Source: an uncultured Clostridia bacterium
Lineage (GTDB): Bacteria; Bacillota; Clostridia; Oscillospirales; Oscillospiraceae
NCBI GenBank assembly: GCA_947165825.1
Contig: CAMVBX010000001.1
Span: 1-45,673 of the forward strand
Direction: 5' to 3'
Length of the DNA: 45,673 nt
Made by a program: the position numbers and the translations under genes. The notes beneath the pieces are model-generated. The model did no database searches, was not told where the DNA came from, and worked only from the letters and a program-made list of their open reading frames with translations. Position 1 is the stretch's first letter. Every line of letters starts with the position of its first letter. Shown piece after piece: positions 19,463 to 44,099 of this stretch.

Positions 19463-19505
19463 AAGCCGTTTTTTTCCAAGAAACTGGAAGGAACGGCTTT
19501 TCTAT
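19463..19505 (+). terminator. Weak terminator candidate after the response regulator
   Basis: Stem aagccgtt / aacggctt around a long, partly paired loop, followed by a T-rich tctatt. Confidence 0.35.
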
Positions 19506-19782: not shown

Positions 19783-19821
19783 AGCCGTCGGACGATCCGC
19801 CGCGGGAAAAGGAGTACGGCC

Positions 19822-20541: not shown

Positions 20542-20548
20542 TCCGTTT

Positions 20549-22726: not shown

Positions 22727-22741
22727 GGCGGGGACGAGGAC

Positions 22742-24931: not shown

Positions 24932-24999
24932 CCCGTACGCTGAAACCGGGCTTTTCGGAATACAGATCGAAAACCAATATAGATTAGGAGGATATTGCA

Positions 25000-25161
25000 G
25001 TGGAAAACGTGAAAAAGACAGATTTGCCGGAGAAGGATACGGAACAGGTCGCCCTGGAGCCTAACGAGCTGAGTCAGGTGGCGGGTGGGGGAGATCCCTT
25101 CGCCGATATCCCCAGGGTGCCGGAGAATCCCATTGACGATGAGCTCAGGAAAGACGGTTAA
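25000..25161 (+). CDS. Small GG-leader peptide A1 (53 aa; predicted 23-aa core GDPFADIPRVPENPIDDELRKDG)
   Basis: Not in the supplied ORF track. A GTG start lies 8 nt after the AGGAGG at 24986-24991, and there is an in-frame stop at 24985. The leader ...LEPNELSQVAGG fits the double-glycine consensus exactly. The peptide is a paralog of A2. Confidence 0.7.
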   Translation: MENVKKTDLPEKDTEQVALEPNELSQVAGGGDPFADIPRVPENPIDDELRKDG

Positions 25162-25174
25162 GGAGGAACGCACC

Positions 25175-25339
25175 ATGCTGGAACTGCGGAAGAACGGGAA
25201 AGGGACTGATCGGGAGCCGGAAAAGGTGGCGCTGGATCTCAACGATCTGGATCTGGTAACGGGATCCGGCGATCCCTTTGAAAATATCCCCCGGGTACCG
25301 GAAAAGGAGATCGATCCCGAGCTCCGGAACGATGCCTGA
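25175..25339 (+). CDS. Small GS-leader peptide A2 (54 aa; predicted 23-aa core GDPFENIPRVPEKEIDPELRNDA)
   Basis: An internal ATG of the listed 84-aa ORF lies 8 nt after an AAGGAGG that overlaps the A1 stop. The leader is ...LDLNDLDLVTGS. The core is 16/23 identical to A1. Confidence 0.75.
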   Translation: MLELRKNGKGTDREPEKVALDLNDLDLVTGSGDPFENIPRVPEKEIDPELRNDA

Positions 25340-26708
25340 ACGGCGGGAGCTGACCGGGCGGACCGGGATCTGCGTTCTTGCGGCGATCCTGCTCCTGGCG
25401 CTTCTCTCCATCTCTTCCCCCGCTCCGGCTGCAGCCGCCGGGGAGACGGCGTATATCGTGAAGATCAAGGCGTCCGATGCCCCGTTCACCGTTGTCGGGG
25501 AAGGGGAGATGCGGCGTCTGGACCGGGCCGGGCTCCTGGAATGGGCGGAGCCCGATGGGGAAGCTCAGCTGCTGGGCACCCTGTCCCCCTACTATGCGGA
25601 TGAACAGTGGAACCTGGATATGATCGGCGCGGAGGCTGCCTTCCGGCAAAACTGTCTTGGGCAGGGGATCCGGGTGGGCGTCCTGGATTCCGGCGTGAAT
25701 CCCCATCCGGACTTCGGGGACCGTCTGCTGCCGGGACATAACTACGTCCAGGACGCCGAGGATCCGGAGGACACCTCGGATTCCTACGGCCATGGCACCC
25801 GCATCGCGGGCCTCGTCGCCGCTGCCGGCGAAGCGGGATATATCGGCACCGCCCCCGGAGCGGAGATCGTACCCATCAAGGTAACGGATGGAAAATCCGT
25901 CAAGGTCAGCGTCATTTGCGAGGCGATCTACGGGGCGATCGACGACTTCGGCTGCCGCGTTCTGAACTTGAGCATGGGCGTGCGGACAGACTATCAGTCC
26001 CTGCGGGATGCCGTGGCCTATGCGGAAGCCAGGGGCGTCGTGGTGGTTTCCGCGGCGGGCAACAGCGGCACCTCCGCCATGTACTACCCCGCCGGGTACG
26101 AAACGGTCATCGGCATCGGAGCGGTGGACTGCAACAGCGTGCTGTATTACCACTCCGATCACAATGAAAGCGTTTTTCTGACCGCCCCGGGGGTGGATGT
26201 GCGCAGCACGGCCTCCCGCGGCGGCTATACCGCCTCTACAGGCACCAGCTTCGCGGTGCCCCAGGTATCCGGCGCGGCGGCGGTGCTGCTGGGGATGGAC
26301 GGCGGTCTGAGCCCGGAGGAGATCCGGAGGATTCTGGCAGAAACCGCCAGTGATGCCGGAGACGAGGGCTATGACGAGTATTTCGGCTACGGGATCCTGA
26401 ACCTGGCGGGCTGCGTCTCCCGCCTGACGGAAGGGGAAGAACTGCCCGGGGAACCGTGCAGTTTCCTCCCGGAAACAGGTCCCGCCGCAGCGGTCCGCAG
26501 CAACGTGAACGAAGAAATCGATTGCACCTATCTGCTGGCCGAATATGACACGGACGGCGTCTGCCTGAGCGTGCAGACATGGCGTTTTACTCTCCCGGCC
26601 GGAGGAATTGCGGAGCTCACCCTTCCCGAGGAAAACGCGAACTACGGACAGTTTCTCTATGATTCGAAAACCCTGTGCCCCCTGGCCGAGGCGCGCAAAT
26701 CGCACTGA
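25332..26708 (+). CDS. Secreted subtilisin-like serine protease (peptidase S8)
   Basis: Its ATG overlaps the end of A2 (an 8-nt overlap). It has a signal peptide or anchor, ICVLAAILLLALLSISSPAPAAAA. The catalytic motifs are VGVLDSG (Asp), SYGHGTRIAG (His) and GTSFAVPQVSG (Ser). Confidence 0.9.
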   Translation: MPERRELTGRTGICVLAAILLLALLSISSPAPAAAAGETAYIVKIKASDAPFTVVGEGEMRRLDRAGLLEWAEPDGEAQLLGTLSPYYADEQWNLDMIGAEAAFRQNCLGQGIRVGVLDSGVNPHPDFGDRLLPGHNYVQDAEDPEDTSDSYGHGTRIAGLVAAAGEAGYIGTAPGAEIVPIKVTDGKSVKVSVICEAIYGAIDDFGCRVLNLSMGVRTDYQSLRDAVAYAEARGVVVVSAAGNSGTSAMYYPAGYETVIGIGAVDCNSVLYYHSDHNESVFLTAPGVDVRSTASRGGYTASTGTSFAVPQVSGAAAVLLGMDGGLSPEEIRRILAETASDAGDEGYDEYFGYGILNLAGCVSRLTEGEELPGEPCSFLPETGPAAAVRSNVNEEIDCTYLLAEYDTDGVCLSVQTWRFTLPAGGIAELTLPEENANYGQFLYDSKTLCPLAEARKSH

Positions 26709-26740
26709 ACACAATGCTTCACGAAATTGAGGGATCTGCC

Positions 26741-29700
26741 ATGAGAAAACCATTTGTCCGAATCCTTGCGGCGCTTCTCATCGTCTTGATGCTGTTCCAG
26801 CTTTCCGGGGAGAGCATCGCCTATGCGGCGGACACGCTGGACAAGGCGCTCAACCCGGAGAAACAGATCGAACTCATCGTGCCGCAGTCGCTGCAGGATG
26901 GGGAAAACTACTTCTTCATCCGGGAGGATACCTTCACCATCAGTGAGAAGAGCAGCGAAAAGCTGTATATCCCCATCCAGCGGACCGGAGACATAGATGC
27001 GGCGACGGACGTGACGCTCAAGGTCATCGACATGTCCGCCCACTTCGGCGTGAACTATGAAGCCAGGATCTGTGACGAAAAGACGGCTCCCGTGACGATC
27101 CTGAACGGCATCGCCGTGATCGATCTGTTCCTGTATGCCGATGAGCAGATCGAAGCCGAACCGATCGACGAGGATGAACTGGGCACCATATTGACCGAGA
27201 ATGGCGGAAGCGGGGATATCCTGGCGCCGGACGGTGAGGTCGTGGGCTCGATTTCCGCTGTCCCTCTGGATGAAAACGGCAATCCGATCCCACCCGAAAC
27301 GGGCGGGACAGCATCGGCTGCGCCTGCGGCGGAGCCTGGCGATGAGGGAGAATCCGTCCCCAATGCGTCGGCGGAGGCTGAGGCGGAGGAAACTGCGCTT
27401 GCGGAGGACGGAGAACCGGAGGAGGAACCCCTGTCTCCCCCCCGGAGCCTGATGGCCGCCCGCAATGCCTTCACCGGGACCCAATCCGACCGACAGCAGC
27501 TGGCAGGCGGCGATACCTTCGGCGCTCTGTCTCCCGCTCAGCGTCTGGAAGCGGCGCAGGAGGGGCAGCAGCGCACCGACGCGGAGATCGCGGCGGAAAA
27601 CTACCCCGGTCGGGAATACGCCCTGCATTTCGAAGCCGGGGAGATCGTCAAATTCCTGGAGATCACCCCCAAGTATTCCGAGGCTGCCGATGGGGACAGC
27701 ACCATCATCCTCATGCTGAAGGACTTGCCGGATAACGCCGTCGTCCCGGAGGACTTCAATATGCGCTCCGTCGTCATCACCGACGAGGATGAGCATGAGG
27801 AGGTCGTCATCAGCCTGACCCAGGAGACGATCCGCGCCGAGGACGGGAAGGCGGTCATCACGGTCACCCGTACCGGCCGCATCAACGATCTGGTGGGCGT
27901 CATGCTCTCCTCCCAGGATGGCAGCGCCGTTGCCGGGGACGATTACGGCGGCGTGGGGGCCAAACTCTGGTTCTCCATGGGGATCACCTCCCGTACGGTG
28001 GAATTGCCGGTGGGCCACGGGGCTGAGGAGAAAGACTTCACCGTGACCATCGCGCCTCTGCCCACCATGCCTGACGTGAAGATCGGATTGGCCAGCGCCC
28101 GCGTTATCATCCCTGCCGGGGAGAAGGCGGATGACGGCGAGCTGATGGCCAGCACGGACCTGTACGGCGACATGTGGAACCTGCGGGACAGGACCCGGAA
28201 GATCACCGGCAAGGTGAATTATGACAGCGATACGACCGTCAGCTACAGGACCAGCCTCGATAAGTGCGAGACACAGTACATCTCCCTCTACACGGACAGA
28301 GACTATGCCTGGGACGGCATCCACGTAGTATACGACTACCACACCTGGTATTCCAAGGGCAAAGTTGATGTGGAATTGAATAACGGCGACGGCAACTGGG
28401 TCCGTGTTTTCCGTAAAGACTGGGGCGACCTGGACGAGAAGTGGAAGCGAGAGCAGATTGCCGACGCCTATTTCGGCCAGTTAGAGGGACCCTGGATCAT
28501 CAGCATCGATAACTATACCTATGAGGTTCATAACGGCTTCCGGGACAGCCATTCCGACATCGTCGTAACAAGCGTGCAGCCCATCAAGCGGCAGTTCACC
28601 ATCAAGATGCTGGCGCCCGAGGCCCTCTCCTTCGAGGGAATGACGGAGGCGGAGGTGCTGGCCCGGTATGAGCAGGTCATGCTGGACTCCGGCCTGGATA
28701 CCTCCGTGACCCTGTATACCGGGGACAATTTCTCCATCTCCCGTCTCAGCAGCCCGGAGATGGCCCGGCTCGTGGGGATCGAGGCGGTCCGGTCCGACGG
28801 CATGACGTACCGGATCGCAAACATCACCGGCAGTAACGGCACCGCCACGGTGGAGCTGAATCCGCGCCTCATCAACTTGCTGGCCGGTTACGGCTACATC
28901 GAATGGAAGGAGAGCAAAGGCTCCTACTCCGGCACCATCCAGGTCCGGCCGGTATTCGACTACGTGAAGAGCGTCACCGTCCAGGTCCGGGATTCCGCCT
29001 ACGGGACCCTCTGCCTGGAGGACGAGCCCCCTCTCCGCTGGGAATTCGATTCTGACCAGATGATCAACGTCTGTATGGGCGCCAACTCCCGCCACAACGT
29101 CGACTGGCAGGGAGAAACGGATAATGCGGGCAACGATTACTATACCTTCACCGCCACGGGAGACGACCCTTACGTCTCCATCGACATGCCTTACGCGAAC
29201 GCCTCCAAGCTGGTCTGGGTCAAGGTCCGGGCCAGGAACCTCTGCGGGGCGGACGCCATTGAGCTCTTCGGCAAGTTCAACGATACGGGTCCCGAAGGCA
29301 CAAGCTGCGTCCATATCGATCTGGAGCAGGACAAGGAATGGCACACCTACCTGGTGAACATCCCGGAGTCGAATATCCAGACCGTCAACGCCTATAAAGG
29401 AGCCACCATCAGCACGACCACCTGGAAGGGGAAGGCCAACTGGCTCCGGCTGGATCCCGTGTGGAATGAAAACTCCTCCGCGCGCTCCGGCGATCAGATC
29501 CAGATCGACTACGTGGCTTTCTTCTCCGACAAGGAGAAGGCGGAATCCTATCATAACGGCACCGCCGCGGGCACTACCCTCACCGCCGGCAGGCATACCT
29601 TCCATTACGGCGATAAGCTGGTCTTCCTCCCCAACCTGGATCCCGCCTGGGCGGGCCGGATGCGGGCCCTGGGCATTTCCAGCGAGAGCCGCAGGAACGG

Positions 29701-32700
29701 ACCTGCCGGGACGCTGACCGGGAAGAACGACGGGTATTACGTGGGTGAGGATGGGGCCGATCAATGGTCCGTCACCCTGGATCAGGATTACTATGAATTC
29801 TGGCAGTTCTACACGGATGTGGACAACCTGGTGCAGGTCCAGATCCCCGTATCCGACGCGGAGTATTTCGATACCGAAAAGGGCCTCTTCGCAGGGCTTG
29901 CCCCCACAGTCAGCGGGAACTATCAGATCTGGACGGTGCGGGAGAGCGTCCTGACCAACGAACTGGTGGACCTGATCGCTCTGCCGAAGGACAGCAGCCA
30001 TGTGCCGGTCTGGACTCTTGCCGGAAACGGAAATACGTATTCCGGCAGCGAATTCTTCTTCTTCGCCGGGGTACAGGCCTCGGACAATCTGGTTACCCTC
30101 CGGATGGACCGGACGGCGTCCGATCACGCCTGGTACTCCCTCCGGGGCACCGCCTGCTACTCCACCCTGAATCTGGAGAGCGGGAATGAGGCGGACGATC
30201 TCTATCCCGCAGAGTTTGCCCGGATCACTTCCGCCCTGTCCGGCACCGAGTCGGGCCGGGACGGCGATTTTACCCTGGAGCCCATGTACTTGCTGGGCGG
30301 CAGCATCGTGCGCTACATCGTGCATTTTAACGGCACCTCCATGATCCGGGAGGTCAAGGTGGCCCCGGCGAATGCCGCCACCGAAACGGTGAATTACCTG
30401 GATGCCGCGGGCGGCTATTCGCAGATCCGGGCCATCCCTGTGGATCTGGGGAACGTGAAGGTGGAGGGGTGGTCCCGTACAGGCGCGCATTTTTCCAATG
30501 TCAGCGTGACCCTGGCCAACTTCAACCCCGAAGTCATCACCGCCATGGAGATGAACGGCAAGACCCTCACCGTGAAAATCACGGTGGATCCGGGGCAGCC
30601 GTACATCTGGGAGGGCGCGCAATGCAGAGAGACCGTCACAGAGGTGACCCTCTGGTTCCAGAGCCAGCTCACCGGAGAGATCCACGGGATCTACTCCACC
30701 ACCCTGCAGGAGGGAGAGACGAGCCCCGGCCTCACCTGGAACCAGATGACGAATACCGCCACCCTGACCATCCGGAGATTCTCACCGGACGCGCCGGAAA
30801 AGTACACCTACGGCGATGTGATGATGCTCCAGCTCACCACCGATAAGAAAACCTCTGCAGGCGGGAGCGGCCTGATGGTCTATCAGCCCGTGTCCAGCGG
30901 CTATACCGTCATCACCGACCAGAACTATGTACCGGAAACCTATGAAGAGGATGTGGACATGTCCAGCATGCTGGATGCGGCCCTCTCCGAAGAAAACAAG
31001 ACCCGTTACAGCTTTGGTCAGTTCCCCTGGCTGGGAAACATCACCGGGGTCTTTGCCACCTTTTCCTATTTTGTCAGCTCCGGATTCAACAATACCGCGC
31101 AGATGATCCTGGACGATCTGCAGCTCATGGAGGATGGGGACGCGGAGCTCATGGCCGGCGTTCTCCCGCGCAAGGCGGCCATCAGTGCGGCAGTGGCCTT
31201 CAAGGAACTCCCCTACGGCGGCGTCCGCACCATGATTGCCGTGGCCGTATCCTTCGGCAATGCCGCCTATTCCAGACGGGCCAATCCCTATCAAGCGAGG
31301 GAAGTCGCGTCTACCTTCCTGAGCGGCATTACCAGCGGCAGCAGCGGAGACCTGCTCTATGGAGGCGGCCAATTCAACGGCGGCGAATCCCTGGTCCAAA
31401 GCGAGCTGGGCGGATCATACATCTACTTCACCATCTATGTGGGCCTCTATCTCGACTGGGGCTTCATTGAGAAAGCCGTGACCGACAGCGACGGTGAGAC
31501 GGAACAGAGCCACTTCGCCCTCTTCCTGGGCGCCGGGGGCTTCTACGGCATCAGCATGACCGGCGGCTATACGAAATACGTTTTCCCCTGGGGCGTTCCG
31601 GTGTATTTCAATATTGAGGCGAATATCGACCTGACGGTATTCCTGGGGTCTTCTGCGGATCCCCAAAAGACGCTGGAATCCTTCTACGAGACTTCAGACC
31701 ACAAGGGACAGGACTTCGCCTTCAATATGGAGATTTATGCAGATGCCGGGCTGAAGCTTACCATCGGTGTCGGCCTCTACAAGATCATAGGCGTCCGGGC
31801 ATCCGGCGGTGTCGGGGTCCAGGCCGGCCTGAGCCTGCGCATGGCGGACTGGTTCCCGGATCTGGAAGGGGCCGATACCCTCAGCGTCTCCACCGATGCC
31901 ACGTTCTCCGGTTCCGTTGACCTGATCGTGACCAGTATCGATCTCTGGAGCGCCTCCTGGCCGCTGCCCCTGGGCTATGGCTGGCTGCAGTATTTCCAGC
32001 AGATGCGCCGGGCGAATATCCTGATCCATTTTATCAACGAGGAGATCAACGAGCACAGAGGTTCTCAGGCAGCCAGAGACGAATGTCGCCGGCTGGCCGA
32101 CGAGCTGGGCGCCTATGTGGACGCCTATCAGGGTACCGGCAAGGCGCTGAAAAAGCTGGTGGACCACCTCAACGACTATGCCTATGATCATGGCATCATC
32201 CGGCCGGAGCACTGGGCCCGGGTCAATATGATTCGGCAGGGCGGCTTGCTGGGCAACATGGCGGAAAGCTACTATGCCTGGATGATGGAGGACGACGGGC
32301 AAAGCAGCCTCTTCCATACCCGGGACCATGTGGATACCCGCTGGGTGGCGGGGGAGGACGCCTCTCTTATGGCGGCCTTCGGCCCGGTGAGCACCGCAAA
32401 GCTTGTGGAGAATGCGGTCTCCCAGCCCGCGGCGCAGATCGCGGCCCTGGGGAACAACCGCTTCCTTGCGGTCTTCCTGGACGACGACGCAAGCCGGGAC
32501 CGCCAGCAGGCCGGCGTACTGAAATGGGCGGTTTACGATGCAAACACAAACGCATGGACGGCCCCGCAGACCGTACAGGATGACGGGACCGCGGACGGGC
32601 GTCCCAACCTCATCGACGGCGGGGACAAGCTGATCCTCTCCTGGTCCTCCATCCCGCAGGAAAAGTACGCCGCGATGAAGCTGGAGGTCGCCAGGGAGCT

Positions 32701-35700
32701 GAACGTCGCAGATTACAATGAAGAAACTGAGGTCTACACCATCACCGACGACACGGCTGTGCTCCGCACCCTGGAGACGAACCCGGATCGGGTAATGAAC
32801 CTGATGGACATCTTCACCGCGGAGTTCAGCAAGAGCAGTTTCACCTTCGGCCCCATCACCCAGCTCACGGACGACGACTATTACGACGACGGGCCCCAGG
32901 CGGTGTACGACAGTGAGACCGGCGACTATGTCATCCTCTACTATAAGACCGCCCAGGATACGGAGGCCTATGCCGATGCGGAGGACCGGCTGCTGGATCT
33001 GGTAAACTCCAACGCGGATCCCAACCGGACCTACGGCGTCATGTGCTACATGCTCTACAACAATCAGACCGAGACTCCGGATACCAAGGGCCTTACCCAT
33101 GCCTCCGGCTGGGCGAGGGATTATCTCTTCCCCAACGAGACGGATCTGGCTCCGGCAGCGCAGGCCGCTTTCCTGGCAGCCTGGGGCGGTCAGCGTTTTC
33201 TGGCCTCCGCGATCAAGTCCGTCGGCCCGGACGGGAGAGTAATCCAGTCTGACGCGCCCATCGCGGACCTGACCGTCTGCAGCGGATATAACGGTCTTGC
33301 GGCCTATGCCTTCACGGTGGATATGGACTATAACGTGGACACCGCTGAGGACAAGGAGCTGTTTGTGCAGTTCTATCGCTTTGCCGACCATAAGACCTAT
33401 GTGCCGGTGAAGGTGGCGGGTGAGGCTGTGAAGGAAAAGCTGAACTCCGCTGTGCGTGACGCGAACAGAAGAACCATCGTTCCGGCCACGGTCACCGAGG
33501 CGGTGACGCCCGTGAACGTGGGACAGCCCAAGCTGATCCGCAACGAAGGCTCCACCTGGCTTTTCTGGCGGGAGGACGAGCGAGGCCTGCGCTACCTGAA
33601 CATCTCCGAGCTGCTCAACAAGAAGCTGGAGACCGGGCCGGGGGACGACGATTGGGTCTATGCCCTGCAGGATAACGGCACCTTTGCCACGGATCCCGAT
33701 ACCGGAAAGCCCTATGAGCCTGAAGCCCAATGGGTGGATTTCGGCTCCGCCATGACGGATGGGAAAATGACCATCACGGACTACCAGGTCGTCACGGACC
33801 GGGACGATAATCTCTACGTGGTCTGGACCGACCTTCATAGCTACGAAGTACAGGATGACATTCTGGAAACGACCATCTCCAACCCGGCGCAGGCCATCTA
33901 CGCCTCGGCCAAGATCAAGCAGACGAACAGCGACGTGAAAGAGGGAGAAGTGGACAGCATCGCCCGCTGGTCCAAGCCCTACCGGCTGACGAAGGACAAC
34001 TCCTCCAACGACGGCGTCACCATCGCCCTGGATGACAACGGCGGGCTGATCCTGCTGCACAACCAGTTCTTTATGGAGCTGGCGGACACCGAGGCTGAGA
34101 TCGCCTACATGCTCGCAAACCATCTGGCAGGGGCCTATCATGACGAGGAAAGCGGCAACGACTATTTCCTGGGCTATCCCTATTACCCCAGCGGCATGAG
34201 CCTGATGGTGACCCGCTGCGAACCCATCGGCTCCGTGGAGGCCACGACGTTCGTCTTTGACGACGTCACCCCCGTGGCGGGACAGACTGTGCAGGTCGCA
34301 GCGGCGGTGGAGAATGTGGGCCTGACCAACGCCAAGGGCTGCGAGGTCCGATTCTATGAGTACAGGAACGGCGTACAGGGAAGGTTGCTGCAGACTGCTT
34401 ACAGCGAAGAGGAATTCCAGGTCAACTCGGCCAGGCAGGTCGTATTCGACTGGACCATCCCGGCAGACGGACCCGAGGGCTTCTGCATCCAGGCAGTGGC
34501 CAGGGAGAAGAGGGCGGACGGCACCTGGTACGATCCGACAGAGACCTTCTCCGAGCCCTTCGTTCCGAAGGCGGAATATGCGCCGGAGCTGGTGAAATGC
34601 GTGCAGAGCGGAGACGGCTTCGACGTGGAGTACACCGTGACCAATACCGGAAACCTGGCCGCGCCTCAGGGCATGAAGGCCGACCTTGTCCTTGAGGGAC
34701 TTTACGGCGACCTGAAGGAACAATACGGCATGGATGACGACCTGCTGATCACGGAGGACATCTCCGGCCTGGCCCCCGGGGAGACCCGGACCGTTGCGAA
34801 GACCATCGTCCTCCCGGTCACCGTCTTCCGGTTCTGCGGCTATGACGCCGTGACCGTCGTGGTGCGGGATCAGTACGACGAGGCTGTGAAGTGCACGGAT
34901 CACAGCTTCATCACCCTGGATGCGCCGCTGAACCTGGAGCTCAACGGCGGCGCGGAGCTGGCGCTCATGAGCGGTGAGAAAAAGACCGCCGCGCTTCGCT
35001 TTGACTCCACCGGATTTATGGATATCAGCGGAAAGACGAAATACTCCGTGTCCGATCCCGCCGTCGCCTCCGTGGATGAAAACGGCGTTGTCACCGGTAT
35101 CAGCGAAGGTACCGCCACCCTGACGGCCACCCTGATGCCCAGCGGCCGTACCGTGGAGATCCGGGTGACGGTGAGCGGTACGGCGGAGCCCGGCAGCTCG
35201 GATGTACCGACGATTCGGGAGTACATGATCGGTCTGAGCGGACGCCTGGAGAACGGCACGGTGCAGACCGGCGCCAACAGCGCCATCCCGGGGAGCCGGG
35301 TCACGTTTACGCCGAAGCCGGAGGAGGGCTATACCGTCGGGACGGTCACCGTGACCAACCGGAACGGCATCCCGCTGGAGCTCATCGACAACGGGGACGG
35401 CACCTGGAGCTTCATCATGCCGGCGGAAAACGTGAGGATCGGTGTGGAATTTGTCCCGGCTGGCGCCCCGGCTGAGGAACCCCCGGCGCCGGATCAGCAG
35501 TTTGCGGATGTGCCCGCGGGGACCTGGTTCACCGACGCGGTGGCCTGGGCTGTGGCACAGGGGATCACCAACGGCACGGACGAGACGCATTTCAGCCCGG
35601 ATGTGCCCTGTACCCGGGCGCAGATGGTGACCTTCCTGTGGCGCGCGGCAGGCAAGCCCGAGCCTGCGGGAGGGGAGATGCCCTTCCAGGACGTGGCGAA

Positions 35701-36022
35701 GGGGAGCTACTATGAGAAGGCCGTCCTTTGGGCGGTGGAGCAGGGGATCACCCAGGGCGTGAGCGAGACGGAATTTGCGCCGGACGCCACCGTGACCAGA
35801 GCCCAGACCGTGACCTTCCTGTACCGCTTCGCAGGGGCGCATACGAAGGCGGCCGCTGTCTTTGCGGATGTGCCTGTGGATTCCTGGTATGCCGAGGCGG
35901 TGACCTGGGCGGTGGAAAACAAGATCACCAGAGGCACGGGCGACACCACCTTCTCCCCGGACGACGCCTGTGTGCGGGCCCAGATCGTCACCTTCCTTTA
36001 CCGCTATCCGGGAGAGGGATAA
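26741..36022 (+). CDS. Giant (3093 aa) SLH-anchored cell-surface protein with Calx-beta, CARDB-like and Big_2 domains
   Basis: Signal peptide MRKPFVRILAALLIVLMLFQLSGESIAYA. Calx-beta-like segments include SSQDGSAVAGDDYGGVGAKLWFSMGITSRTVELPV near 27.8-28.0 kb. CARDB-like segments lie near 34.2-34.9 kb. A Big_2 segment (YSVSDPAVASVDENGVVTGISEGTATLTA) lies near 35.0 kb. Three C-terminal SLH repeats follow. Most of the central roughly 2000 aa has no domain I recognise. Confidence 0.9.
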   Translation: MRKPFVRILAALLIVLMLFQLSGESIAYAADTLDKALNPEKQIELIVPQSLQDGENYFFIREDTFTISEKSSEKLYIPIQRTGDIDAATDVTLKVIDMSAHFGVNYEARICDEKTAPVTILNGIAVIDLFLYADEQIEAEPIDEDELGTILTENGGSGDILAPDGEVVGSISAVPLDENGNPIPPETGGTASAAPAAEPGDEGESVPNASAEAEAEETALAEDGEPEEEPLSPPRSLMAARNAFTGTQSDRQQLAGGDTFGALSPAQRLEAAQEGQQRTDAEIAAENYPGREYALHFEAGEIVKFLEITPKYSEAADGDSTIILMLKDLPDNAVVPEDFNMRSVVITDEDEHEEVVISLTQETIRAEDGKAVITVTRTGRINDLVGVMLSSQDGSAVAGDDYGGVGAKLWFSMGITSRTVELPVGHGAEEKDFTVTIAPLPTMPDVKIGLASARVIIPAGEKADDGELMASTDLYGDMWNLRDRTRKITGKVNYDSDTTVSYRTSLDKCETQYISLYTDRDYAWDGIHVVYDYHTWYSKGKVDVELNNGDGNWVRVFRKDWGDLDEKWKREQIADAYFGQLEGPWIISIDNYTYEVHNGFRDSHSDIVVTSVQPIKRQFTIKMLAPEALSFEGMTEAEVLARYEQVMLDSGLDTSVTLYTGDNFSISRLSSPEMARLVGIEAVRSDGMTYRIANITGSNGTATVELNPRLINLLAGYGYIEWKESKGSYSGTIQVRPVFDYVKSVTVQVRDSAYGTLCLEDEPPLRWEFDSDQMINVCMGANSRHNVDWQGETDNAGNDYYTFTATGDDPYVSIDMPYANASKLVWVKVRARNLCGADAIELFGKFNDTGPEGTSCVHIDLEQDKEWHTYLVNIPESNIQTVNAYKGATISTTTWKGKANWLRLDPVWNENSSARSGDQIQIDYVAFFSDKEKAESYHNGTAAGTTLTAGRHTFHYGDKLVFLPNLDPAWAGRMRALGISSESRRNGPAGTLTGKNDGYYVGEDGADQWSVTLDQDYYEFWQFYTDVDNLVQVQIPVSDAEYFDTEKGLFAGLAPTVSGNYQIWTVRESVLTNELVDLIALPKDSSHVPVWTLAGNGNTYSGSEFFFFAGVQASDNLVTLRMDRTASDHAWYSLRGTACYSTLNLESGNEADDLYPAEFARITSALSGTESGRDGDFTLEPMYLLGGSIVRYIVHFNGTSMIREVKVAPANAATETVNYLDAAGGYSQIRAIPVDLGNVKVEGWSRTGAHFSNVSVTLANFNPEVITAMEMNGKTLTVKITVDPGQPYIWEGAQCRETVTEVTLWFQSQLTGEIHGIYSTTLQEGETSPGLTWNQMTNTATLTIRRFSPDAPEKYTYGDVMMLQLTTDKKTSAGGSGLMVYQPVSSGYTVITDQNYVPETYEEDVDMSSMLDAALSEENKTRYSFGQFPWLGNITGVFATFSYFVSSGFNNTAQMILDDLQLMEDGDAELMAGVLPRKAAISAAVAFKELPYGGVRTMIAVAVSFGNAAYSRRANPYQAREVASTFLSGITSGSSGDLLYGGGQFNGGESLVQSELGGSYIYFTIYVGLYLDWGFIEKAVTDSDGETEQSHFALFLGAGGFYGISMTGGYTKYVFPWGVPVYFNIEANIDLTVFLGSSADPQKTLESFYETSDHKGQDFAFNMEIYADAGLKLTIGVGLYKIIGVRASGGVGVQAGLSLRMADWFPDLEGADTLSVSTDATFSGSVDLIVTSIDLWSASWPLPLGYGWLQYFQQMRRANILIHFINEEINEHRGSQAARDECRRLADELGAYVDAYQGTGKALKKLVDHLNDYAYDHGIIRPEHWARVNMIRQGGLLGNMAESYYAWMMEDDGQSSLFHTRDHVDTRWVAGEDASLMAAFGPVSTAKLVENAVSQPAAQIAALGNNRFLAVFLDDDASRDRQQAGVLKWAVYDANTNAWTAPQTVQDDGTADGRPNLIDGGDKLILSWSSIPQEKYAAMKLEVARELNVADYNEETEVYTITDDTAVLRTLETNPDRVMNLMDIFTAEFSKSSFTFGPITQLTDDDYYDDGPQAVYDSETGDYVILYYKTAQDTEAYADAEDRLLDLVNSNADPNRTYGVMCYMLYNNQTETPDTKGLTHASGWARDYLFPNETDLAPAAQAAFLAAWGGQRFLASAIKSVGPDGRVIQSDAPIADLTVCSGYNGLAAYAFTVDMDYNVDTAEDKELFVQFYRFADHKTYVPVKVAGEAVKEKLNSAVRDANRRTIVPATVTEAVTPVNVGQPKLIRNEGSTWLFWREDERGLRYLNISELLNKKLETGPGDDDWVYALQDNGTFATDPDTGKPYEPEAQWVDFGSAMTDGKMTITDYQVVTDRDDNLYVVWTDLHSYEVQDDILETTISNPAQAIYASAKIKQTNSDVKEGEVDSIARWSKPYRLTKDNSSNDGVTIALDDNGGLILLHNQFFMELADTEAEIAYMLANHLAGAYHDEESGNDYFLGYPYYPSGMSLMVTRCEPIGSVEATTFVFDDVTPVAGQTVQVAAAVENVGLTNAKGCEVRFYEYRNGVQGRLLQTAYSEEEFQVNSARQVVFDWTIPADGPEGFCIQAVAREKRADGTWYDPTETFSEPFVPKAEYAPELVKCVQSGDGFDVEYTVTNTGNLAAPQGMKADLVLEGLYGDLKEQYGMDDDLLITEDISGLAPGETRTVAKTIVLPVTVFRFCGYDAVTVVVRDQYDEAVKCTDHSFITLDAPLNLELNGGAELALMSGEKKTAALRFDSTGFMDISGKTKYSVSDPAVASVDENGVVTGISEGTATLTATLMPSGRTVEIRVTVSGTAEPGSSDVPTIREYMIGLSGRLENGTVQTGANSAIPGSRVTFTPKPEEGYTVGTVTVTNRNGIPLELIDNGDGTWSFIMPAENVRIGVEFVPAGAPAEEPPAPDQQFADVPAGTWFTDAVAWAVAQGITNGTDETHFSPDVPCTRAQMVTFLWRAAGKPEPAGGEMPFQDVAKGSYYEKAVLWAVEQGITQGVSETEFAPDATVTRAQTVTFLYRFAGAHTKAAAVFADVPVDSWYAEAVTWAVENKITRGTGDTTFSPDDACVRAQIVTFLYRYPGEG
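35501..36009 (+). other. Three tandem SLH (S-layer homology) repeats of the giant protein
   Basis: FADVPAGTWFTDAVAWAVAQGITNG..., FQDVAKGSYYEKAVLWAVEQGITQG... and FADVPVDSWYAEAVTWAVENKITRG..., each ending in TRAQ/VRAQ..VTFLYR. Confidence 0.85.
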
Positions 36023-39496: not shown

Positions 39497-40141
39497 ATGA
39501 AGCTTTCTCACGATGCTTCGGGATTCGTCCTGCTGAGCGAGGCTGTGCCGGAGATCATTCAGGAGATCCGGTATGCCTCGGCGGAGAATTTCATCGGGAC
39601 CCGGATCGACGGATATTGGGAACCCGCCGCCCTCCTGACCCGGGAGGCCGCGGATGCGCTGCGGGCGGTGAGCGCAGACCTGGCAGTCAGGGGACTGCGG
39701 CTGAAGGTCTTCGATGCCTATCGCCCCCGGCAGGCCGTGGACCATTTTCTCCGTTGGGCGAAGGACCCGGCGGATACCCGCAGGAAAGCGGAGTATTATC
39801 CGGAGCTGAAAAAGGAAACGCTGATCCCATTGGGGTATATCGCAGAAGAATCCGCCCACAGCCGGGGCAGCGCCGTGGACCTGACGCTCTGCGGCGGGAT
39901 GGGGCGGGAGCTGGACATGGGCAGCCCCTTCGATCGGTTCGGCCCGATCAGCCGCCCGGACTATCCGGGGATCACGGCGGAGCAGCGGACCAATCGCCTG
40001 CTGCTGCGGGAGGCCATGCGGGCCCGGGGCTTTTTGCCGCTGGAGGAGGAATGGTGGCATTTCACCCTGGCGGCTGAGCCTTATCCCGATACCTGCTTCA
40101 CCTTCCCGGTGAGCCGCTCCGTGTTGTCCGGAGGCCTGTGA
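39497..40141 (+). CDS. D-alanyl-D-alanine dipeptidase (VanX/DdpX, peptidase M15D)
   Basis: Motifs VFDAYRP, SAHSRGSAVDLTL and EEEWWHFTL are characteristic of VanX-type dipeptidases. Confidence 0.85.
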   Translation: MKLSHDASGFVLLSEAVPEIIQEIRYASAENFIGTRIDGYWEPAALLTREAADALRAVSADLAVRGLRLKVFDAYRPRQAVDHFLRWAKDPADTRRKAEYYPELKKETLIPLGYIAEESAHSRGSAVDLTLCGGMGRELDMGSPFDRFGPISRPDYPGITAEQRTNRLLLREAMRARGFLPLEEEWWHFTLAAEPYPDTCFTFPVSRSVLSGGL

Positions 40142-40165: not shown

Positions 40166-40205
40166 TTGGACATTTATTGGACACGGACGGATATTCTGCT
40201 ATACT
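40166..40205 (+). promoter_or_regulatory. Direct-repeat (TTGGACA-N4-TTGGACA) promoter, copy 2
   Basis: The 28 nt at 40166-40193 are identical to 19505-19532. The 3' heptamer lies 8 nt from tattct (40192-40197). Read as a sigma-70 promoter instead, TTGGAC (40177-40182), a 17-nt spacer and TATACT (40200-40205) also fit. It lies about 100 nt upstream of the STAS gene. Confidence 0.6.
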
Positions 40206-40304
40206 GAACGTATCCTGCGCTGCGGAAACGGCTGGATCAGAATCCCCTGCGGTCCGCAGGCAGGTTTATCCCGACCGTACGGAATCGGATAAGGAGGTTG
40301 CGAT

Positions 40305-40601
40305 ATGACCATCAACAAAACCGGAAGCGGAAGCAAGCTGACCCTGGCCTTGGCGGGCCGTCTGGATACCGTTACCGCGCCAGAGCTGGAAAAGGAACTG
40401 CAGGATTCCCTGGAGGGGATCGATACGCTCATTTTCGATTTCTCCGGTCTGGAGTACGTCTCCTCCGCCGGGCTGCGTGTGCTGCTTTCGGCGCAGAAGA
40501 CCATGAACAAGCAGGGAGAAATGAAGCTTACTCATGTGAACGAAAGCATCATGGAAATTTTTGAGGTCACCGGCTTTACGGATATCCTGACCTTCGAATA
40601 A
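40305..40601 (+). CDS. STAS domain anti-sigma-factor antagonist (SpoIIAA/RsbV-like)
   Basis: 98 aa after an AAGGAGG RBS. The conserved phospho-Ser context FSGLEYVSSAGLRVLL is present, and the C-terminal MEIFEVTGF segment is typical of the family. Confidence 0.9.
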   Translation: MTINKTGSGSKLTLALAGRLDTVTAPELEKELQDSLEGIDTLIFDFSGLEYVSSAGLRVLLSAQKTMNKQGEMKLTHVNESIMEIFEVTGFTDILTFE

Positions 40602-40620
40602 GCGGAGGGAGAAGAGCGGA

Positions 40621-41238
40621 ATGAAGACAGCAAGGATCAAAGTCACGACCCGGGGCGAAGGAATGGAAGAAGCCCTGGCGGCAACGGAGAAACTGGGGAC
40701 CGACAGCGGTCTCGCGCACAAGGAGCAGCTGCGGCTCCGCCTGTTGGCGGAGGAGCTGATCGGCCTGATGCGGGGCATTGCGGGCAGCGTGGAGGCCTGC
40801 TATCAGGCGGAGCAGGAGGAGCGGAGATTCCGCCTTTGCCTCAGCGCCGATGTTACGCTGGACAAGGAGATGCGCAAGCAGCTGCTGGCCGCCTCCTCCA
40901 GCGGGAAAAACGCGGCGGCCCGGGGATTCATGGGAAAACTCCGGGAAATGGTGGCCATCGTTGTGCTTCCAAAGAGCCAGAGTTCGCCCGGGGTGTCCAA
41001 TCTCTCTCTGGGTCTGATCAGCATGGGCAGCCCCAGAGGGTATGTTTCCGGCGCGGATACCTATAACTGGTCCATGAGCACCTATATGTCCGAGGTCAAA
41101 AGCAAGCGGGGAGAGAACGCGGAAGCCGACGAGGCCTGGGACGAACTGGAAAAGTCCATTGTGGCCAACCTGGCGGATGAGGTCACCGTACAGATCGTGG
41201 GGCACAACGCGGAGATCACCATTACCAAGGCTTTCTAA
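40621..41238 (+). CDS. Hypothetical protein (205 aa) inside the partner-switching module
   Basis: GGAGGGAG RBS and codon usage like its neighbours. No family recognised. Confidence 0.6.
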   Translation: MKTARIKVTTRGEGMEEALAATEKLGTDSGLAHKEQLRLRLLAEELIGLMRGIAGSVEACYQAEQEERRFRLCLSADVTLDKEMRKQLLAASSSGKNAAARGFMGKLREMVAIVVLPKSQSSPGVSNLSLGLISMGSPRGYVSGADTYNWSMSTYMSEVKSKRGENAEADEAWDELEKSIVANLADEVTVQIVGHNAEITITKAF

Positions 41239-41304
41239 GGCACAGTACGGCATAGACGAAGGAAACGGCGCTGCCACGAATATGGGAAGAGGAGACGGAA
41301 GGGT

Positions 41305-42873
41305 ATGGAAAAAAAGCGGATTACGATCCCGCTCTCCGGGCGGATCGACTCCAATAACGCAGCAGCGGTGGAACAGGAGATCCTGGCGAAGCTGGGGGCG
41401 GAGCGGGATATCGCCCTGATCCTGGACGCGGAGAAGCTGGAGTATATTTCCAGCGCGGGCTTGCGGGTGATCCTGCACCTGAAAAAGATGATCCCGGAGC
41501 TGAGCATCCGAAACGTCAGCTCCGAGGTTTATGAGATCCTGGAGATGACCGGGTTCACCGAGATGATGACGGTGGAAAAGGCCTACCGGGTCGTCTCGGT
41601 GGAGGGCTGCGAGGAGATCGGGCGCGGCGCAAACGGCACGATCTACCGGATCGACCGGGATAATGTGGTCAAGGTTTACAACAATGCCGACGCTCTGGCG
41701 GATATCCAGCATGAGCGGGAGGTGGCAAAGCTTGCCCTGATCCTGGGCATCCCCACGGCCATTTCTTACGACGTGGTCCGGGTGGGGGAGAGCTATGGCT
41801 CTGTTTTCGAGCTGCTGAACGCCAGGTCCTTCTCCAAGATCATCGCAACGGAGCCGGAGAAGCTGGACTGGTGCGTGGAGGAATACGTAAAGCTGCTGAA
41901 GACGATCCACGGCACGCTGGTTCCGGCGGGCAAGCTGCCGGATATGCGGGAAACGGCCCTGGACTGGGCCCGGTTTATGCAGGACTATCTGCCCCGGGAG
42001 GCCGGAGCGAAGCTGCTGGCCCTGGTGGAGGCGGTGCCCAGGGACGATCATATGCTCCACGGGGACTATCATACGAAGAATCTGGAGCTGCAGAATGACG
42101 AGGTCCTGCTCATCGATATGGACACCCTGGCGGTGGGCCATCCCATCTTTGAACTGGCGAGCATCTACAACTCCTTCGTCGGGTATTCCGAGCTGAAGCC
42201 GGAAACGATCCTGGCGTTCCAGGGCTTCGACCAGGAAACCGGCCGGACCTTCTGGCACAAGGCGCTTTCCGCCTATCTGGGCACGAACTGCCCCGCGAAG
42301 CTGCGGGAGGTGGAGGACAAAGCCCGCATCATCGGGTATACCCGCATGATCCGCCGCTCCATCCGGCGCAAGGGATTGGAGACGGAGCAGGGCAGAGCGG
42401 AGATCGAGCTGTGGAAGCGGGAGCTTCTGGAGCTGCTGGAACGGACGGACAAGCTGACTTTCTCCCGCAATGAGCTGGAGCTTGAAGCCGTCGACGAGAA
42501 CCTGGCGCAGGTGCAGACCTTCGTGGATGAGCGTCTGGAGGCGGCGGACTGTCCGCCGAAGGCGCAGATGCAGATCGGCGTGGCGGTGGAGGAGATCTTC
42601 GTGAATATCGCCCACTATGCCTATGCGCCGGATAAGGGCAGCGCCGCGGTGCGCGTGGAAGTCAGCGATGATCCCGTTACGGTGTCCATCACCTTCATCG
42701 ACCAGGGTATGCCCTATGATCCCTTGGCCAGGACCGATCCGGATATATCGCTCCCGGTCAGCGAGCGGGACGTCGGCGGGCTGGGGGTCTTCCTGACCAA
42801 ACAGCTCATGGACGACGTGACCTATTCCTATCGGGACGGACGGAATATCCTGACCCTGAAAAAGAAGCTGTGA
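41305..42873 (+). CDS. Triple-fusion regulator: STAS - APH/choline-kinase-like kinase - GHKL anti-sigma kinase (SpoIIAB-like)
   Basis: N-terminal STAS with EKLEYISSAGLRVILHL. The central kinase fold has GRGANGTIYRI, VVKVY, LHGDYHTKNL and LLIDMD. The C-terminal HATPase has AVEEIFVNIAHYAY, IDQGMPYDP and VGGLGVFLTKQLMD. Confidence 0.85.
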   Translation: MEKKRITIPLSGRIDSNNAAAVEQEILAKLGAERDIALILDAEKLEYISSAGLRVILHLKKMIPELSIRNVSSEVYEILEMTGFTEMMTVEKAYRVVSVEGCEEIGRGANGTIYRIDRDNVVKVYNNADALADIQHEREVAKLALILGIPTAISYDVVRVGESYGSVFELLNARSFSKIIATEPEKLDWCVEEYVKLLKTIHGTLVPAGKLPDMRETALDWARFMQDYLPREAGAKLLALVEAVPRDDHMLHGDYHTKNLELQNDEVLLIDMDTLAVGHPIFELASIYNSFVGYSELKPETILAFQGFDQETGRTFWHKALSAYLGTNCPAKLREVEDKARIIGYTRMIRRSIRRKGLETEQGRAEIELWKRELLELLERTDKLTFSRNELELEAVDENLAQVQTFVDERLEAADCPPKAQMQIGVAVEEIFVNIAHYAYAPDKGSAAVRVEVSDDPVTVSITFIDQGMPYDPLARTDPDISLPVSERDVGGLGVFLTKQLMDDVTYSYRDGRNILTLKKKL

Positions 42874-44099
42874 GCGCATTTCCAAAGCTGCAGTTTGACA
42901 CCCGGACGAAAAAGCCGAAGCTCTTCCTGCTTCTGCTTCTGGCGGGGATCGCCGGGCTCGCGGTCTTGCTCCTGTCCCTGGGGGGGACGGAACGCAGCGC
43001 CGTTCCCATCTGCGGGATAACGGCAGCCTTCTGCCTGGCGGCATTCTTCATGCTCCTCTGGGCCTGGCGGGAGCAGCATCGGTATAATCCCTATTCCTAC
43101 AATACGATCTATTACATGGGCTTTGCCCTGTTTGCCCTTTTTGTGCTGGCGACGAATGCGGTGCTGGTCAGCCGGATGCTGCGCTGGCCTGAGCTGTACC
43201 CGGCGGATGCCGTCATGCGTATGCTGCTGGATTCCGCAAAGCAATACATGCTCATTTCCAGCCCTTTCCTTCTGCTTTTCTCTGCGGCGCTGGTGGTATC
43301 CAATCTCTCCCTGATCCGGCATGAGGGAAGGCGGCTGGTGAACCTTCTGGGGATCATTCTGGCTTTCCTGCTGGTGGGCGGTCTGGCCTTCCTGTTCATC
43401 TTTGATTATGCCGTGTCCGGAAGCCTGCAGGAGGTGATGATCCACGATCTGATCACCAACCTCTTTGCCGCCGTGTACCTGTATTTTGAGTGCATGCTGC
43501 TGGGCATCATCATCGCGGACGCGGTGGTGATCCGCTATGAACCGGAGCCGGACAAGGATTTCATCATTATCCTCGGCTGCGGCATCCGCAGCGACGGTAC
43601 GCCCTCGCCCCTTCTGCGGGGGCGGATCGATCGGGCTCTGGATTTTGCGAAAAAACAGGAGGCGGAGACCGGAAAAGCGCCGGTATTCGTCCCCTCCGGC
43701 GGCCAGGGGCCTGATGAGCCGTGCGCGGAGAGCGCCGCCATGAAGCGGTATCTGCTGGAACAGGGCGTCCCGGAGGAACGGATCCTGGAAGAGAACCGGT
43801 CCACGGATACCTTTGAGAACATGAAATTTTCCAAGGAGATCATCCTGGCGGCAAATCCGGAGGGAAAGGTCGCCTTTTCCACCACGAATTACCACGTGTT
43901 CCGCGGCGGCCTCAAGGCCCGCCGGGTGAAAATGCGGGCGGTGGGCATGGGCGCCAGGACAAAATGGTATTTCTGGCCCAACGCTGCGGTGCGGGAATTC
44001 GTGGGCCTGCTGACGGAGCACCGGGGGAAGCAGGCGCTGATCCTGGGGAGCATGGTCGTGTTCTACACCGTGCTGACGCTGCTGGCGTATCGGCGCTGA
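42870..44099 (+). CDS. DUF218 (YdcF/SanA/ElyC-like) membrane protein
   Basis: GTG start overlapping the upstream stop (GTGA). Five to six TM helices are followed by a DUF218 core: FIIILGCGIRSDGTPSPLLRGRIDRAL...PSGGQG...ESAAMKRYL...STDTFENM...TTNYHVFR. Confidence 0.8.
   Translation: MSAFPKLQFDTRTKKPKLFLLLLLAGIAGLAVLLLSLGGTERSAVPICGITAAFCLAAFFMLLWAWREQHRYNPYSYNTIYYMGFALFALFVLATNAVLVSRMLRWPELYPADAVMRMLLDSAKQYMLISSPFLLLFSAALVVSNLSLIRHEGRRLVNLLGIILAFLLVGGLAFLFIFDYAVSGSLQEVMIHDLITNLFAAVYLYFECMLLGIIIADAVVIRYEPEPDKDFIIILGCGIRSDGTPSPLLRGRIDRALDFAKKQEAETGKAPVFVPSGGQGPDEPCAESAAMKRYLLEQGVPEERILEENRSTDTFENMKFSKEIILAANPEGKVAFSTTNYHVFRGGLKARRVKMRAVGMGARTKWYFWPNAAVREFVGLLTEHRGKQALILGSMVVFYTVLTLLAYRR

Follow-up and report, generated by a model that had tools for sequence, protein, structure and literature searches.

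Partner switching is the textbook form of sigma factor control, represented by SpoIIAA/SpoIIAB/SpoIIE and RsbV/RsbW/RsbU of Bacillus, and few outputs other than a sigma factor are known (SiaABCD, SypA, BtrV). Considered here is a partner-switching module in a stretch of 45,673 nucleotides from an uncultured Clostridia bacterium of the Oscillospiraceae (contig CAMVBX010000001.1 of assembly GCA_947165825.1, positions 1 to 45,673), which is referred to as a whole as the window. The module comprises genes for a free STAS protein, for a protein designated P205, and for a protein, the triple fusion, that joins a STAS domain, an APH/choline-kinase-type domain, and a GHKL serine-kinase domain. On a modest balance of probability, it is a rearranged copy of a sigma-independent partner switch of rumen and gut Clostridia that has an APH-type small-molecule kinase as its output.

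Like the Bacillus systems, the module has a STAS protein with a conserved phospho-serine motif and a HATPase_c_2 serine kinase, in which the N, G1, and G2 boxes are intact; in most relatives of the module a gene for a SpoIIE-family PP2C is adjacent as well. Unlike the Bacillus systems, it has no sigma target, its kinase shares a polypeptide with a second STAS domain and an APH domain, there are extra GHKL-like proteins and domains that appear to be dead, and the locus in the window is without a PP2C. As far as can be read from the sequence, the STAS and kinase constituents of a partner switch are present and the sigma target is absent.

In SiaABCD of Pseudomonas aeruginosa, the state of SiaC, the activator of the diguanylate cyclase SiaD, is set by a PP2C together with a kinase (PMC8457831, PMC7647112). 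The present module would be alike in that a small partner, whose state depends on a PP2C and a kinase, controls an enzyme and not a sigma factor; it is unlike SiaABCD in that the components are unrelated in sequence, except for the PP2C with a weak match to SiaA, and in that the enzyme thought to be controlled is an APH-type kinase covalently fused to STAS. Sigma-independent outputs of a STAS phospho-switch are also described for SypA/SypE of Vibrio fischeri and BtrU/V/W of Bordetella, and SypE unites switch components (kinase, receiver, and PP2C) in one polypeptide (PMC8256260). These systems differ from the module in lacking an APH domain, a pseudo-GHKL receptor, and a transporter fusion. 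The APH/choline-kinase enzymes (Cph, LicA, APH(3')-Ia, APH(2''), MtnK, and AmiN) share with the module the fold, the Gly-rich loop and Lys, HGDxHxxN, and IDxD, but they are only 12–17% identical to it and have no N-terminal STAS domain, C-terminal helical segment, or GHKL domain. Non-sigma partner switches are thus already known, and the architecture considered here is already visible in databases.

The original prediction, made from the letters of the window alone, had described an orphan partner-switching module with a fusion of STAS, eukaryotic-like kinase, and GHKL domains, an uncharacterised protein, no sigma factor gene, and a repeated promoter box. Its domains, the genuineness of the fusion, the absence of a sigma factor, and the box are upheld by the present analysis; the class of the central kinase, the nature of P205, the orphan status, and the origin of the fusion are revised.

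Domain architecture and conservation of the triple fusion

Pfam confirms the STAS, APH, and HATPase_c_2 assignments (Table 1), and five motifs quoted in the original prediction (GRGANGTIYRI, HGDYHTKN, IDMD, EEIFVNIAHYAY, and GGLGVF) are all found in the translation. Beyond the APH domain the protein continues in helices up to approximately residue 380. The AlphaFold2 model of the fusion, which like that of P205 is a model of the monomer, has a predicted local distance difference test score (pLDDT) of 79.7, and its GHKL domain matches the fold of SpoIIAB at 24% identity. NCBIfam gives partial matches of the module proteins to ant_ant_sig, TIGR02172, and RsbW/SpoIIAB-type models. TIGR02172, a paralogous family of Fibrobacter succinogenes, is the best of these for the APH region (residues 103–324, E 1.1e-28); at 100.6 bits the match lies below the cut-off of 228.2, so the protein is related to this family and is not a member.

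In alignments of 30–40 relatives of the fusion, the invariant residues include S49, S50, A51, and G52 of the fused STAS domain; G106, G108, K123, H252, G253, D254, N259, D271, and D273 of the APH domain; and, in the GHKL domain, E429, E430, and N434 of the N box, D466 and G468 of the G1 box, and G491–G494 of the G2 box. Because these residues are invariant, the three domains look catalytically or functionally competent and appear to be under purifying selection.

The triple fusion is genuine, since the same four Pfam matches are found at full length in 120 of the 120 best database relatives (75–99% identity) and the architecture has at least 567 matches among species-representative genomes. 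All 80 genome loci that were fetched contain the full-length architecture, and these best 80 genome matches are nearly all metagenome-assembled genomes (MAGs) from the ruminant gut or rumen labelled Oscillospiraceae, Ruminococcaceae, or Clostridia. In databases the members go by no other names than "anti-sigma factor antagonist", "STAS domain-containing protein", "ATP-binding protein", and "phosphotransferase".

The two-domain family and its gene neighbourhoods

Sequence comparison places the triple fusion as a derived state of a much larger and older family of two-domain STAS–APH proteins. In an exhaustive search of representatives clustered at 50% identity, 16,965 proteins reached E <= 1e-3, of which 841 reached E <= 1e-30; the leading matches are for the most part approximately 390 residues long and cover residues 5–386 of the query, which correspond to STAS and APH without GHKL. 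Both the SSAG serine and the catalytic H/D/N/D set are retained in the two-domain proteins; named members come from MAGs of Clostridia, Eubacteriales, and Lachnospiraceae, where they are called "anti-sigma factor antagonist" or "phosphotransferase". Elsewhere the STAS–APH core is fused to an N-terminal HATPase_c_2 domain, PHP, a PolyA_pol nucleotidyltransferase head, HD_4, HD-CE, or a YezG-like domain. Some lineages have GHKL attached at the N-terminus of STAS–APH and others at the C-terminus, which argues for a direct functional link. In two-domain operons the GHKL domain is encoded by a separate gene or is fused to the PP2C (SpoIIE–HATPase_c_2), and the stand-alone kinase, of 147 residues, is 47% identical to the fused GHKL domain, which marks the triple fusion as the product of joining the operon's own RsbW-like kinase onto STAS–APH. 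The presence of two kinase folds and a potential substrate domain in one polypeptide, to which the original prediction drew attention, is real, and it is a derived condition.

Gene neighbourhoods were assembled from 80 genome and 80 metagenome loci, in which open reading frames (ORFs) were called and neighbours clustered; neighbours within 4 kb of the core gene were counted at 148 loci, 100 with the triple fusion and 48 with a two-domain protein. A free STAS gene (at least 57/100 triple-fusion and 15/48 two-domain loci) and a SpoIIE PP2C (57/100 and 13/48) accompany both forms. A PHP protein of approximately 290 residues is found beside the triple fusion and not beside the two-domain protein (56/100 and 0/48); the reverse tendency is seen for an HD_4 protein of approximately 189 residues (3/100 and 16/48) and for a stand-alone GHKL protein of approximately 147 residues (0/100 and 12/48). 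Less frequent neighbours are DUF218 (27/100 and 2/48), a MATE–HATPase_c_2 fusion (16/100 and 1/48), an SDF transporter (9/100 and 5/48), P205 (9/100 and 2/48), and VanX (9/100 and 1/48).

At triple-fusion loci SpoIIE usually lies directly 5' of the fusion and PHP directly 3', giving the typical order STAS – SpoIIE PP2C – fusion – PHP, often with DUF218; at two-domain loci the start of the core gene adjoins HD_4 or is overlapped by it. Examples of the latter, annotated with Pfam, are SDF – STAS – [SpoIIE–HATPase_c_2] – HD_4 – STAS-APH (locus L166), [SpoIIE–HATPase_c_2] – HD_4 – STAS-APH (L165), and HD_4 – STAS-APH – STAS – SDF with a 5TM-SpoIIE-HATPase_c_2 protein nearby (L167). The SpoIIE–HATPase_c_2 fusions are encoded at L165 1836–3866, L166 3388–5418, and L167 397–3204, one of them with a 5TM-5TMR_LYT sensor. 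Fusions of STAS to a HAD phosphatase (approximately 368 residues) occur at L120 312–1418, L132, and L163 8592–9374.

Compared with these loci, the arrangement in the window is a rearranged minority variant, without PP2C and without PHP or HD_4 in cis. "Orphan" is accordingly a fair description of this locus and not of the module, most relatives of which have a SpoIIE PP2C adjacent and PHP or HD_4 beside the core.

A sigma factor does not occur as a conserved neighbour cluster at the 148 loci, and sigma-70 is absent among the families matched two or more times in a Pfam scan of 150 representatives of unclassified neighbours of 140–330 residues. The scanned ORFs of the window likewise contain no sigma-70 Pfam domain, which bears out the statement that the window has no sigma factor gene.

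A VanX-like gene lies within 4 kb of the core at 10 loci (L009, L010, L019, L028, L046, and L067 among them) and DUF218 at 29. Of the remaining neighbours, GNAT acetyltransferases form the most frequent family (8 of 150 representatives), and VanY and nitroreductases are also present. The recurrence of VanX, DUF218, and GNAT may reflect a cell-envelope or xenobiotic theme.

The free STAS protein and P205

The free STAS protein matches Pfam STAS (1.9e-16) and NCBIfam ant_ant_sig (3.8e-19), and carries the SSAG phospho-serine motif within EYVSSAGLRVL. Its SSAG serine is one which we take to be the counterpart of S58 of SpoIIAA. It belongs to one orthogroup (approximately 60–65% identity) with the STAS genes of related modules, including complete ones, whatever their neighbours.

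P205, called uncharacterised in the original prediction, indeed has no family assignment in Pfam or NCBIfam, and its approximately 1700 database relatives are without a Pfam domain; its predicted fold, on the other hand, points to a degenerate relative of SpoIIAB and RsbW. An AlphaFold2 model made from 32 homologues (mean pLDDT 78) has SpoIIAB, RsbW, and UsfX as its top PDB folds (probability approximately 1.0, E 0.015–0.06). When P205 is aligned with the GHKL profiles of the module, the two are in register across the first strand, the first helix, and the N-box helix; LLAEELIGLM of P205 is aligned to VAVEEIFVNI, with Leu/Met in place of the Mg-binding Asn. With moderate confidence, P205 is modelled as a pseudo-GHKL protein of SpoIIAB/RsbW fold that would be incapable of phosphorylating. 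The P205 gene adjoins a STAS gene wherever the gene order is readable, and 10 free STAS genes have P205 as neighbour; P205 is probably a STAS-binding pseudokinase and a candidate partner of the STAS protein.

GHKL-like domains are also found on transporters encoded near the core. The N-terminal region of the SDF transporter, of approximately 140 residues, matches the module GHKL profile (hhalign, 95.5%, E 1.5e-8) and has Arg in place of the N-box Asn; the MATE proteins have a C-terminal HATPase_c_2 domain in which the G1 and G2 boxes are degenerate by eye. Judged from these residues, the SDF and MATE domains, together with P205, look like kinase-dead receptors for STAS proteins. A single family containing P205 and the SDF N-terminal domain found no direct support (hhalign E 0.31); each is separately related to GHKL.

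Output of the switch

The original prediction had called the central domain of the fusion a eukaryotic-like kinase. This term is imprecise: all relatives in sequence and fold are small-molecule kinases of the APH/choline-kinase type, no Hanks-type protein-kinase Pfam family matches the fusion at E <= 0.1, and such matches in NCBIfam are marginal only (E 0.04–0.09). The fold neighbours of the domain are Cph, LicA, APH(3')-Ia, APH(2''), MtnK, and AmiN, with a Foldseek probability of 1.0 for Cph, LicA, APH(3'), and APH(2''); protein kinases are absent from the top 50 fold matches, and the best PDB matches in sequence are capreomycin and hygromycin kinases. The APH domain seems to be a small-molecule kinase, although likeness in fold is also compatible with a protein substrate.

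The gene beside the core encodes PHP, HD_4, or occasionally a PNP_UDP_1 nucleosidase. The nearest matches of the PHP protein, which lie below cut-off, are 3',5'-nucleoside bisphosphate phosphatase together with RNase RNM, and the HD_4 neighbour is a RelA/SpoT-type hydrolase. Examples of such neighbours are the PHP gene at L047 8119–9015 and the HD_4 gene at L062 11563–12150. The adjacency of PHP and HD_4 to the core, and their fusion to it, suggest a kinase/phosphohydrolase pair; this association of genes suggests that APH and PHP or HD_4 act on one small molecule, possibly nucleotide-like.

The main rival to a small-molecule output, which is judged rather improbable, holds that both kinase folds act on STAS: APH would be a protein kinase for the fused or the free STAS protein, at the same or a second site, there would be no small-molecule substrate, and PHP and HD_4 would be protein phosphatases or unrelated. 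STAS is fused to APH throughout the family and its SSAG serine is kept even where no GHKL gene is nearby, and there are weak matches to spore-coat kinases of the CotS/CotI type. That the closest relatives in fold and sequence are all small-molecule kinases speaks against this rival, as does the character of the PHP and HD_4 neighbours, which are hydrolases of nucleotide or small-molecule type and not known protein phosphatases; complete operons, moreover, already have a dedicated GHKL kinase and a PP2C.

A specific version of the small-molecule reading, less probable again, is that the system responds to xenobiotics or antibiotics. APH would inactivate or trap a compound, and the switch would coordinate MATE efflux, SDF uptake, and cell-wall genes of the VanX and DUF218/SanA-like kinds. 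The closest solved relatives are kinases of capreomycin, hygromycin, aminoglycosides, and amicoumacin; MATE–GHKL fusions occur at 16–17 loci, beside the VanX, DUF218, GNAT, VanY, and nitroreductase neighbours described above, and the promoter box of the module is common to a locus beside C39-peptidase ABC exporters. Against a resistance function, nucleotide-like chemistry is suggested both by HD_4 and PHP as partners and by fusion of the core to PolyA_pol, HD_4, HD-CE, and PHP, identity of approximately 75–80% across many species is unusual for resistance enzymes, and no equivalog of a resistance family was matched.

A sigma factor as a possible unlinked target

Ranked lower still, and quite unlikely, is a system of the canonical anti-sigma kind whose target is encoded elsewhere, for example an extracytoplasmic function (ECF) sigma factor beyond the end of the window or a SigB/SigF-like factor. 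In such a system the target would be sequestered by GHKL, the STAS proteins would be antagonists of the ordinary type, and APH would be an accessory sensor. The GHKL domain does match RsbW and SpoIIAB and has the SpoIIAB fold, relatives bear the NCBI label "anti-sigma factor antagonist", and an ECF sigma factor gene (Sigma70_r2/r4_2) is encoded 3.1 kb 3' of the fusion, approximately 320 bp past the right end of the window, on a contig that has the identical fusion gene and extends further (L001 6108–6680). Between this gene and the module lie DUF218 and an M28 peptidase gene in convergent orientation, and the sigma factor gene has downstream genes of its own, namely two small ORFs and a PrsW-protease-family protein (L001 6108–8280), which are not conserved beside related modules. 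A probe for this ECF type matches its own locus only. The gene was therefore rejected as the target, being a separate transcription unit seen at one locus, and the 148 loci have no conserved sigma factor in the vicinity of the module. ECF sigma factors are normally under their own anti-sigma factors and not under RsbW-type kinases.

A sequencing or assembly join of two or three genes, the negligible remainder among the alternatives, is refuted by recurrence of the full-length architecture in independent assemblies and by conservation of the linker region across the alignments.

Promoter and two-component system

The original prediction had placed the module under the second copy of a TTGGACA box, and the evidence proves stronger than was claimed. 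The box is part of an exact 28-bp repeat, TTGGACATTTATTGGACACGGACGGATA, with the layout TTGGACA-N4-TTGGACA and the heptamers 11 bp apart; the second copy lies at a predicted sigma-70-like promoter of the module (Table 1). The second TGGACA of this copy (from position 40178) is -35-like and lies 16 nt before the extended -10 element, giving a match of 10/12 with TG. The bare heptamer is not enriched in the window (7 found vs 3.9 expected) and its enrichment was dropped as a signal; the tandem 28-bp form alone is meaningful.

The first copy of the box begins 63 bp past the response-regulator gene of a two-component system. Orthologues of this response regulator (52–71% identity) are encoded within 10 kb of the fusion gene at L026, L038, L061, and L163, and orthologues of the sensor kinase (50–51% identity) at the first three of these; the tandem box is present at 4/4 of the loci with a response-regulator orthologue, which belong to four other species. 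It stands 5' of the first gene of the module in other species at L026, L083, and L163. The order at L163 is regulator – box – small ORF – STAS – … – SpoIIE – fusion, and at L026 the box lies between a divergent kinase gene and DUF3592 protein – STAS – DUF218 – SpoIIE – fusion – PHP. Direct repeats with an 11-bp period that overlap the -35 element are the classic layout for winged-helix response regulators. The tandem box is thus probably the operator of the response regulator, and the co-occurrence of box and regulator together with the layout of the repeat indicates that the module is probably a member of the regulon of this two-component system.

A second exact repeat of 28 nt, GACCCATGTCCCGTTCCGGGACATGGGC, is in itself very nearly a perfect hairpin; an ORF of 151 codons that belongs to no family contains one of its copies, and the other stands between this ORF and the first tandem box. 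In the leader of approximately 100 nt between the promoter and the STAS start codon there is a perfect palindrome, CCTGCGG-T-CCGCAGG, without an Rfam match, which could be an operator or a leader structure.

Proposed mechanism

From the computed domains, motif conservation, folds, neighbourhood statistics, absence of a conserved sigma factor, and co-occurrence of box and regulator, we infer the following scheme, in which all phosphorylation and binding events are conditional, as are the sense of the regulation and the kind of substrate. The STAS–P205–fusion–DUF218 operon would be transcribed from the tandem-TTGGACA promoter. The GHKL domain would phosphorylate the SSAG serine of the free STAS protein, of its own fused STAS domain, or of both, and the APH domain, which would phosphorylate a hydroxyl of a small molecule, would be gated according to whether the fused STAS domain is phosphorylated or bound. 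Unphosphorylated free STAS protein may alternate between the active kinase and GHKL-like receptors without catalytic activity; these receptors would be P205 in the window and, in relatives, the GHKL-like domain of SDF and possibly that of MATE. A SpoIIE-type PP2C would reset the STAS proteins, and the PHP or HD_4 phosphohydrolase would reverse the APH reaction. Since PP2C and PHP/HD_4 are absent from the locus in the window, they must here act in trans.

A bolder form of this scheme, which is doubtful as a whole, sees STAS–APH and an obligatory PHP or HD_4 as the synthase and hydrolase of an unrecognised phosphorylated small-molecule signal that is gated by the partner switch; dead GHKL domains on SDF and MATE, and the free P205, would be STAS receptors that couple synthesis to transport, and the operon in the window would be a stripped-down form with its hydrolases elsewhere. 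One candidate for the signal is a nucleotide that carries an added phosphate on a hydroxyl group of its ribose.

Several points, besides the latitude in substrate noted above, weigh against a sigma-independent switch with a small-molecule kinase as output. The cycle cannot be closed from the sequence of the window, which has neither PP2C nor PHP/HD_4 in cis. At L088–L090 the order is HD_4 – STAS-APH – STAS and neither a GHKL kinase nor a PP2C is encoded within 7 kb, which leaves room for APH itself acting on STAS. For P205, the TM-scores are 0.63–0.67 when normalised to the target and 0.44 when normalised to the query, and its alignment with the GHKL profiles is weak (hhalign E 0.004, probability 8%, 48 residues). 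The neighbour counts come from crude ORF calling and, with many loci truncated at the end of a contig, are minimum values. No literature on the STAS–APH–HATPase_c_2 architecture was found; one candidate article (PMC7159879, eLife) was set aside, as it mentions APH and STAS in unrelated contexts only.

The operon and its surroundings in the window

The three genes of the module lie exactly where the original prediction had placed them, with the same lengths (Table 1). The gene order in this part of the window is VanX – STAS – P205 – fusion – DUF218; the start of DUF218 overlaps the stop codon of the fusion (GTGA), 4 bp before its end, which makes DUF218 probably co-translated and the fourth gene of the operon.

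Table 1. Positions of the module and of other features in the window
Feature	Position	Strand	Remarks
Low-GC stretch	1001-4100		
IS200-like Y1 transposase gene	3355-4098	-	
GAF–SpoIIE PP2C	5904-7184	-	Pfam SpoIIE 1.6e-43, GAF 2.2e-14
Histidine kinase	17212-18633	+	Pfam His_kinase/HATPase_c
Response regulator	18546-19442	+	Pfam Response_reg/Trans_reg_C
Tandem TTGGACA box, first copy	19505-19532		28 bp
Hairpin repeat, first copy	19556-19583		28 nt
ORF without family	19654-20109		151 aa
Hairpin repeat, second copy	19755-19782		28 nt
Putative secretion/cell-surface cluster	20384-36022		
Repeats at 3' end of long ORF	35501-36004		
VanX-like D-Ala-D-Ala dipeptidase	39497-40141		directly 5' of the module
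Tandem TTGGACA box, second copy	40166-40193		28 bp
Promoter region (predicted)	40166-40205	+	tandem box and extended -10 TGcTATACT ending at 40205
Palindrome	40246-40260		
Free STAS gene	40305-40601	+	98 aa
P205 gene	40621-41238	+	205 aa
Triple-fusion gene	41305-42873	+	522 aa
Fused STAS domain	41323-41580	+	aa 7-92; Pfam STAS 1.1e-12
APH/choline-kinase-type domain	41611-42180	+	aa 103-292; Pfam PF01636 6.8e-15
GHKL serine-kinase domain, SpoIIAB/RsbW-type	42487-42864	+	aa 395-520; HATPase_c_2 PF13581 4.5e-22
DUF218 membrane-protein gene	42870-44099	+	409 aa; Pfam DUF218 5e-26

The operon contains no PP2C gene; the nearest is that of the GAF–SpoIIE protein, which Pfam identifies at the predicted position 33 kb from the module and which is, as had been stated, the only PP2C in the window. 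It aligns with module-linked PP2Cs in the catalytic domains alone (33–38% identity), no orthologue of the GAF type was found adjoining related modules, and the short PP2C beside a related core at L118 is without a GAF domain. The GAF–SpoIIE protein is a candidate for the trans-acting phosphatase of the module, and the sole one in the window.

PADLOC defence models give zero matches to the STAS, P205, fusion, DUF218, PHP, SpoIIE, and HD_4 proteins, and a known anti-phage defence system was rejected on this result for the core proteins. A PNP_UDP_1 nucleosidase gene lies directly 3' of the fusion at L018 (1816–2655), an arrangement seen at few loci; its product matches the PADLOC candidate PDC-M60C (E 2.6e-53) and is the sole match to the defence library among neighbours of the module. 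Rfam finds nothing at the gathering threshold in the window, and in the 110-nt leader chance-level matches only; a riboswitch or other known RNA in the leader or the rest of the window was dropped on this result.

Two further regions of the window stand apart from the module. One has a GC content of 0.49–0.55, compared with approximately 0.62 elsewhere in the window, and contains an IS200-like transposase gene beside ORFs that belong to no family; it may be an inserted element. The other, 3' of the first TTGGACA box, contains genes for a pair of ABC transporters, of which one has a C39 peptidase domain, and for an S8 subtilase, then an ORF of 3115 codons with 144-nt repeats at a spacing of approximately 180 nt at its 3' end; this ORF is followed by genes for an SLH-domain protein and an SLH 5'-nucleotidase. 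This region looks like a secretion or cell-surface cluster.

Significance

The family places a small-molecule kinase, phosphohydrolases of nucleotide type, and transporters under what appears to be a partner switch, and it is abundant, with thousands of protein clusters and with hundreds of clostridial species from the rumen and gut. Its breadth, and its consistent association with hydrolases and transporter fusions, make it a good target for study. Knowing what the APH domain phosphorylates could bring to light a new metabolite or signal, together with the way in which it is regulated, in an important group of gut fermenters; if the proposed role of dead GHKL domains as portable receptors for STAS proteins is true, it would constitute a new principle of post-translational control of transport.

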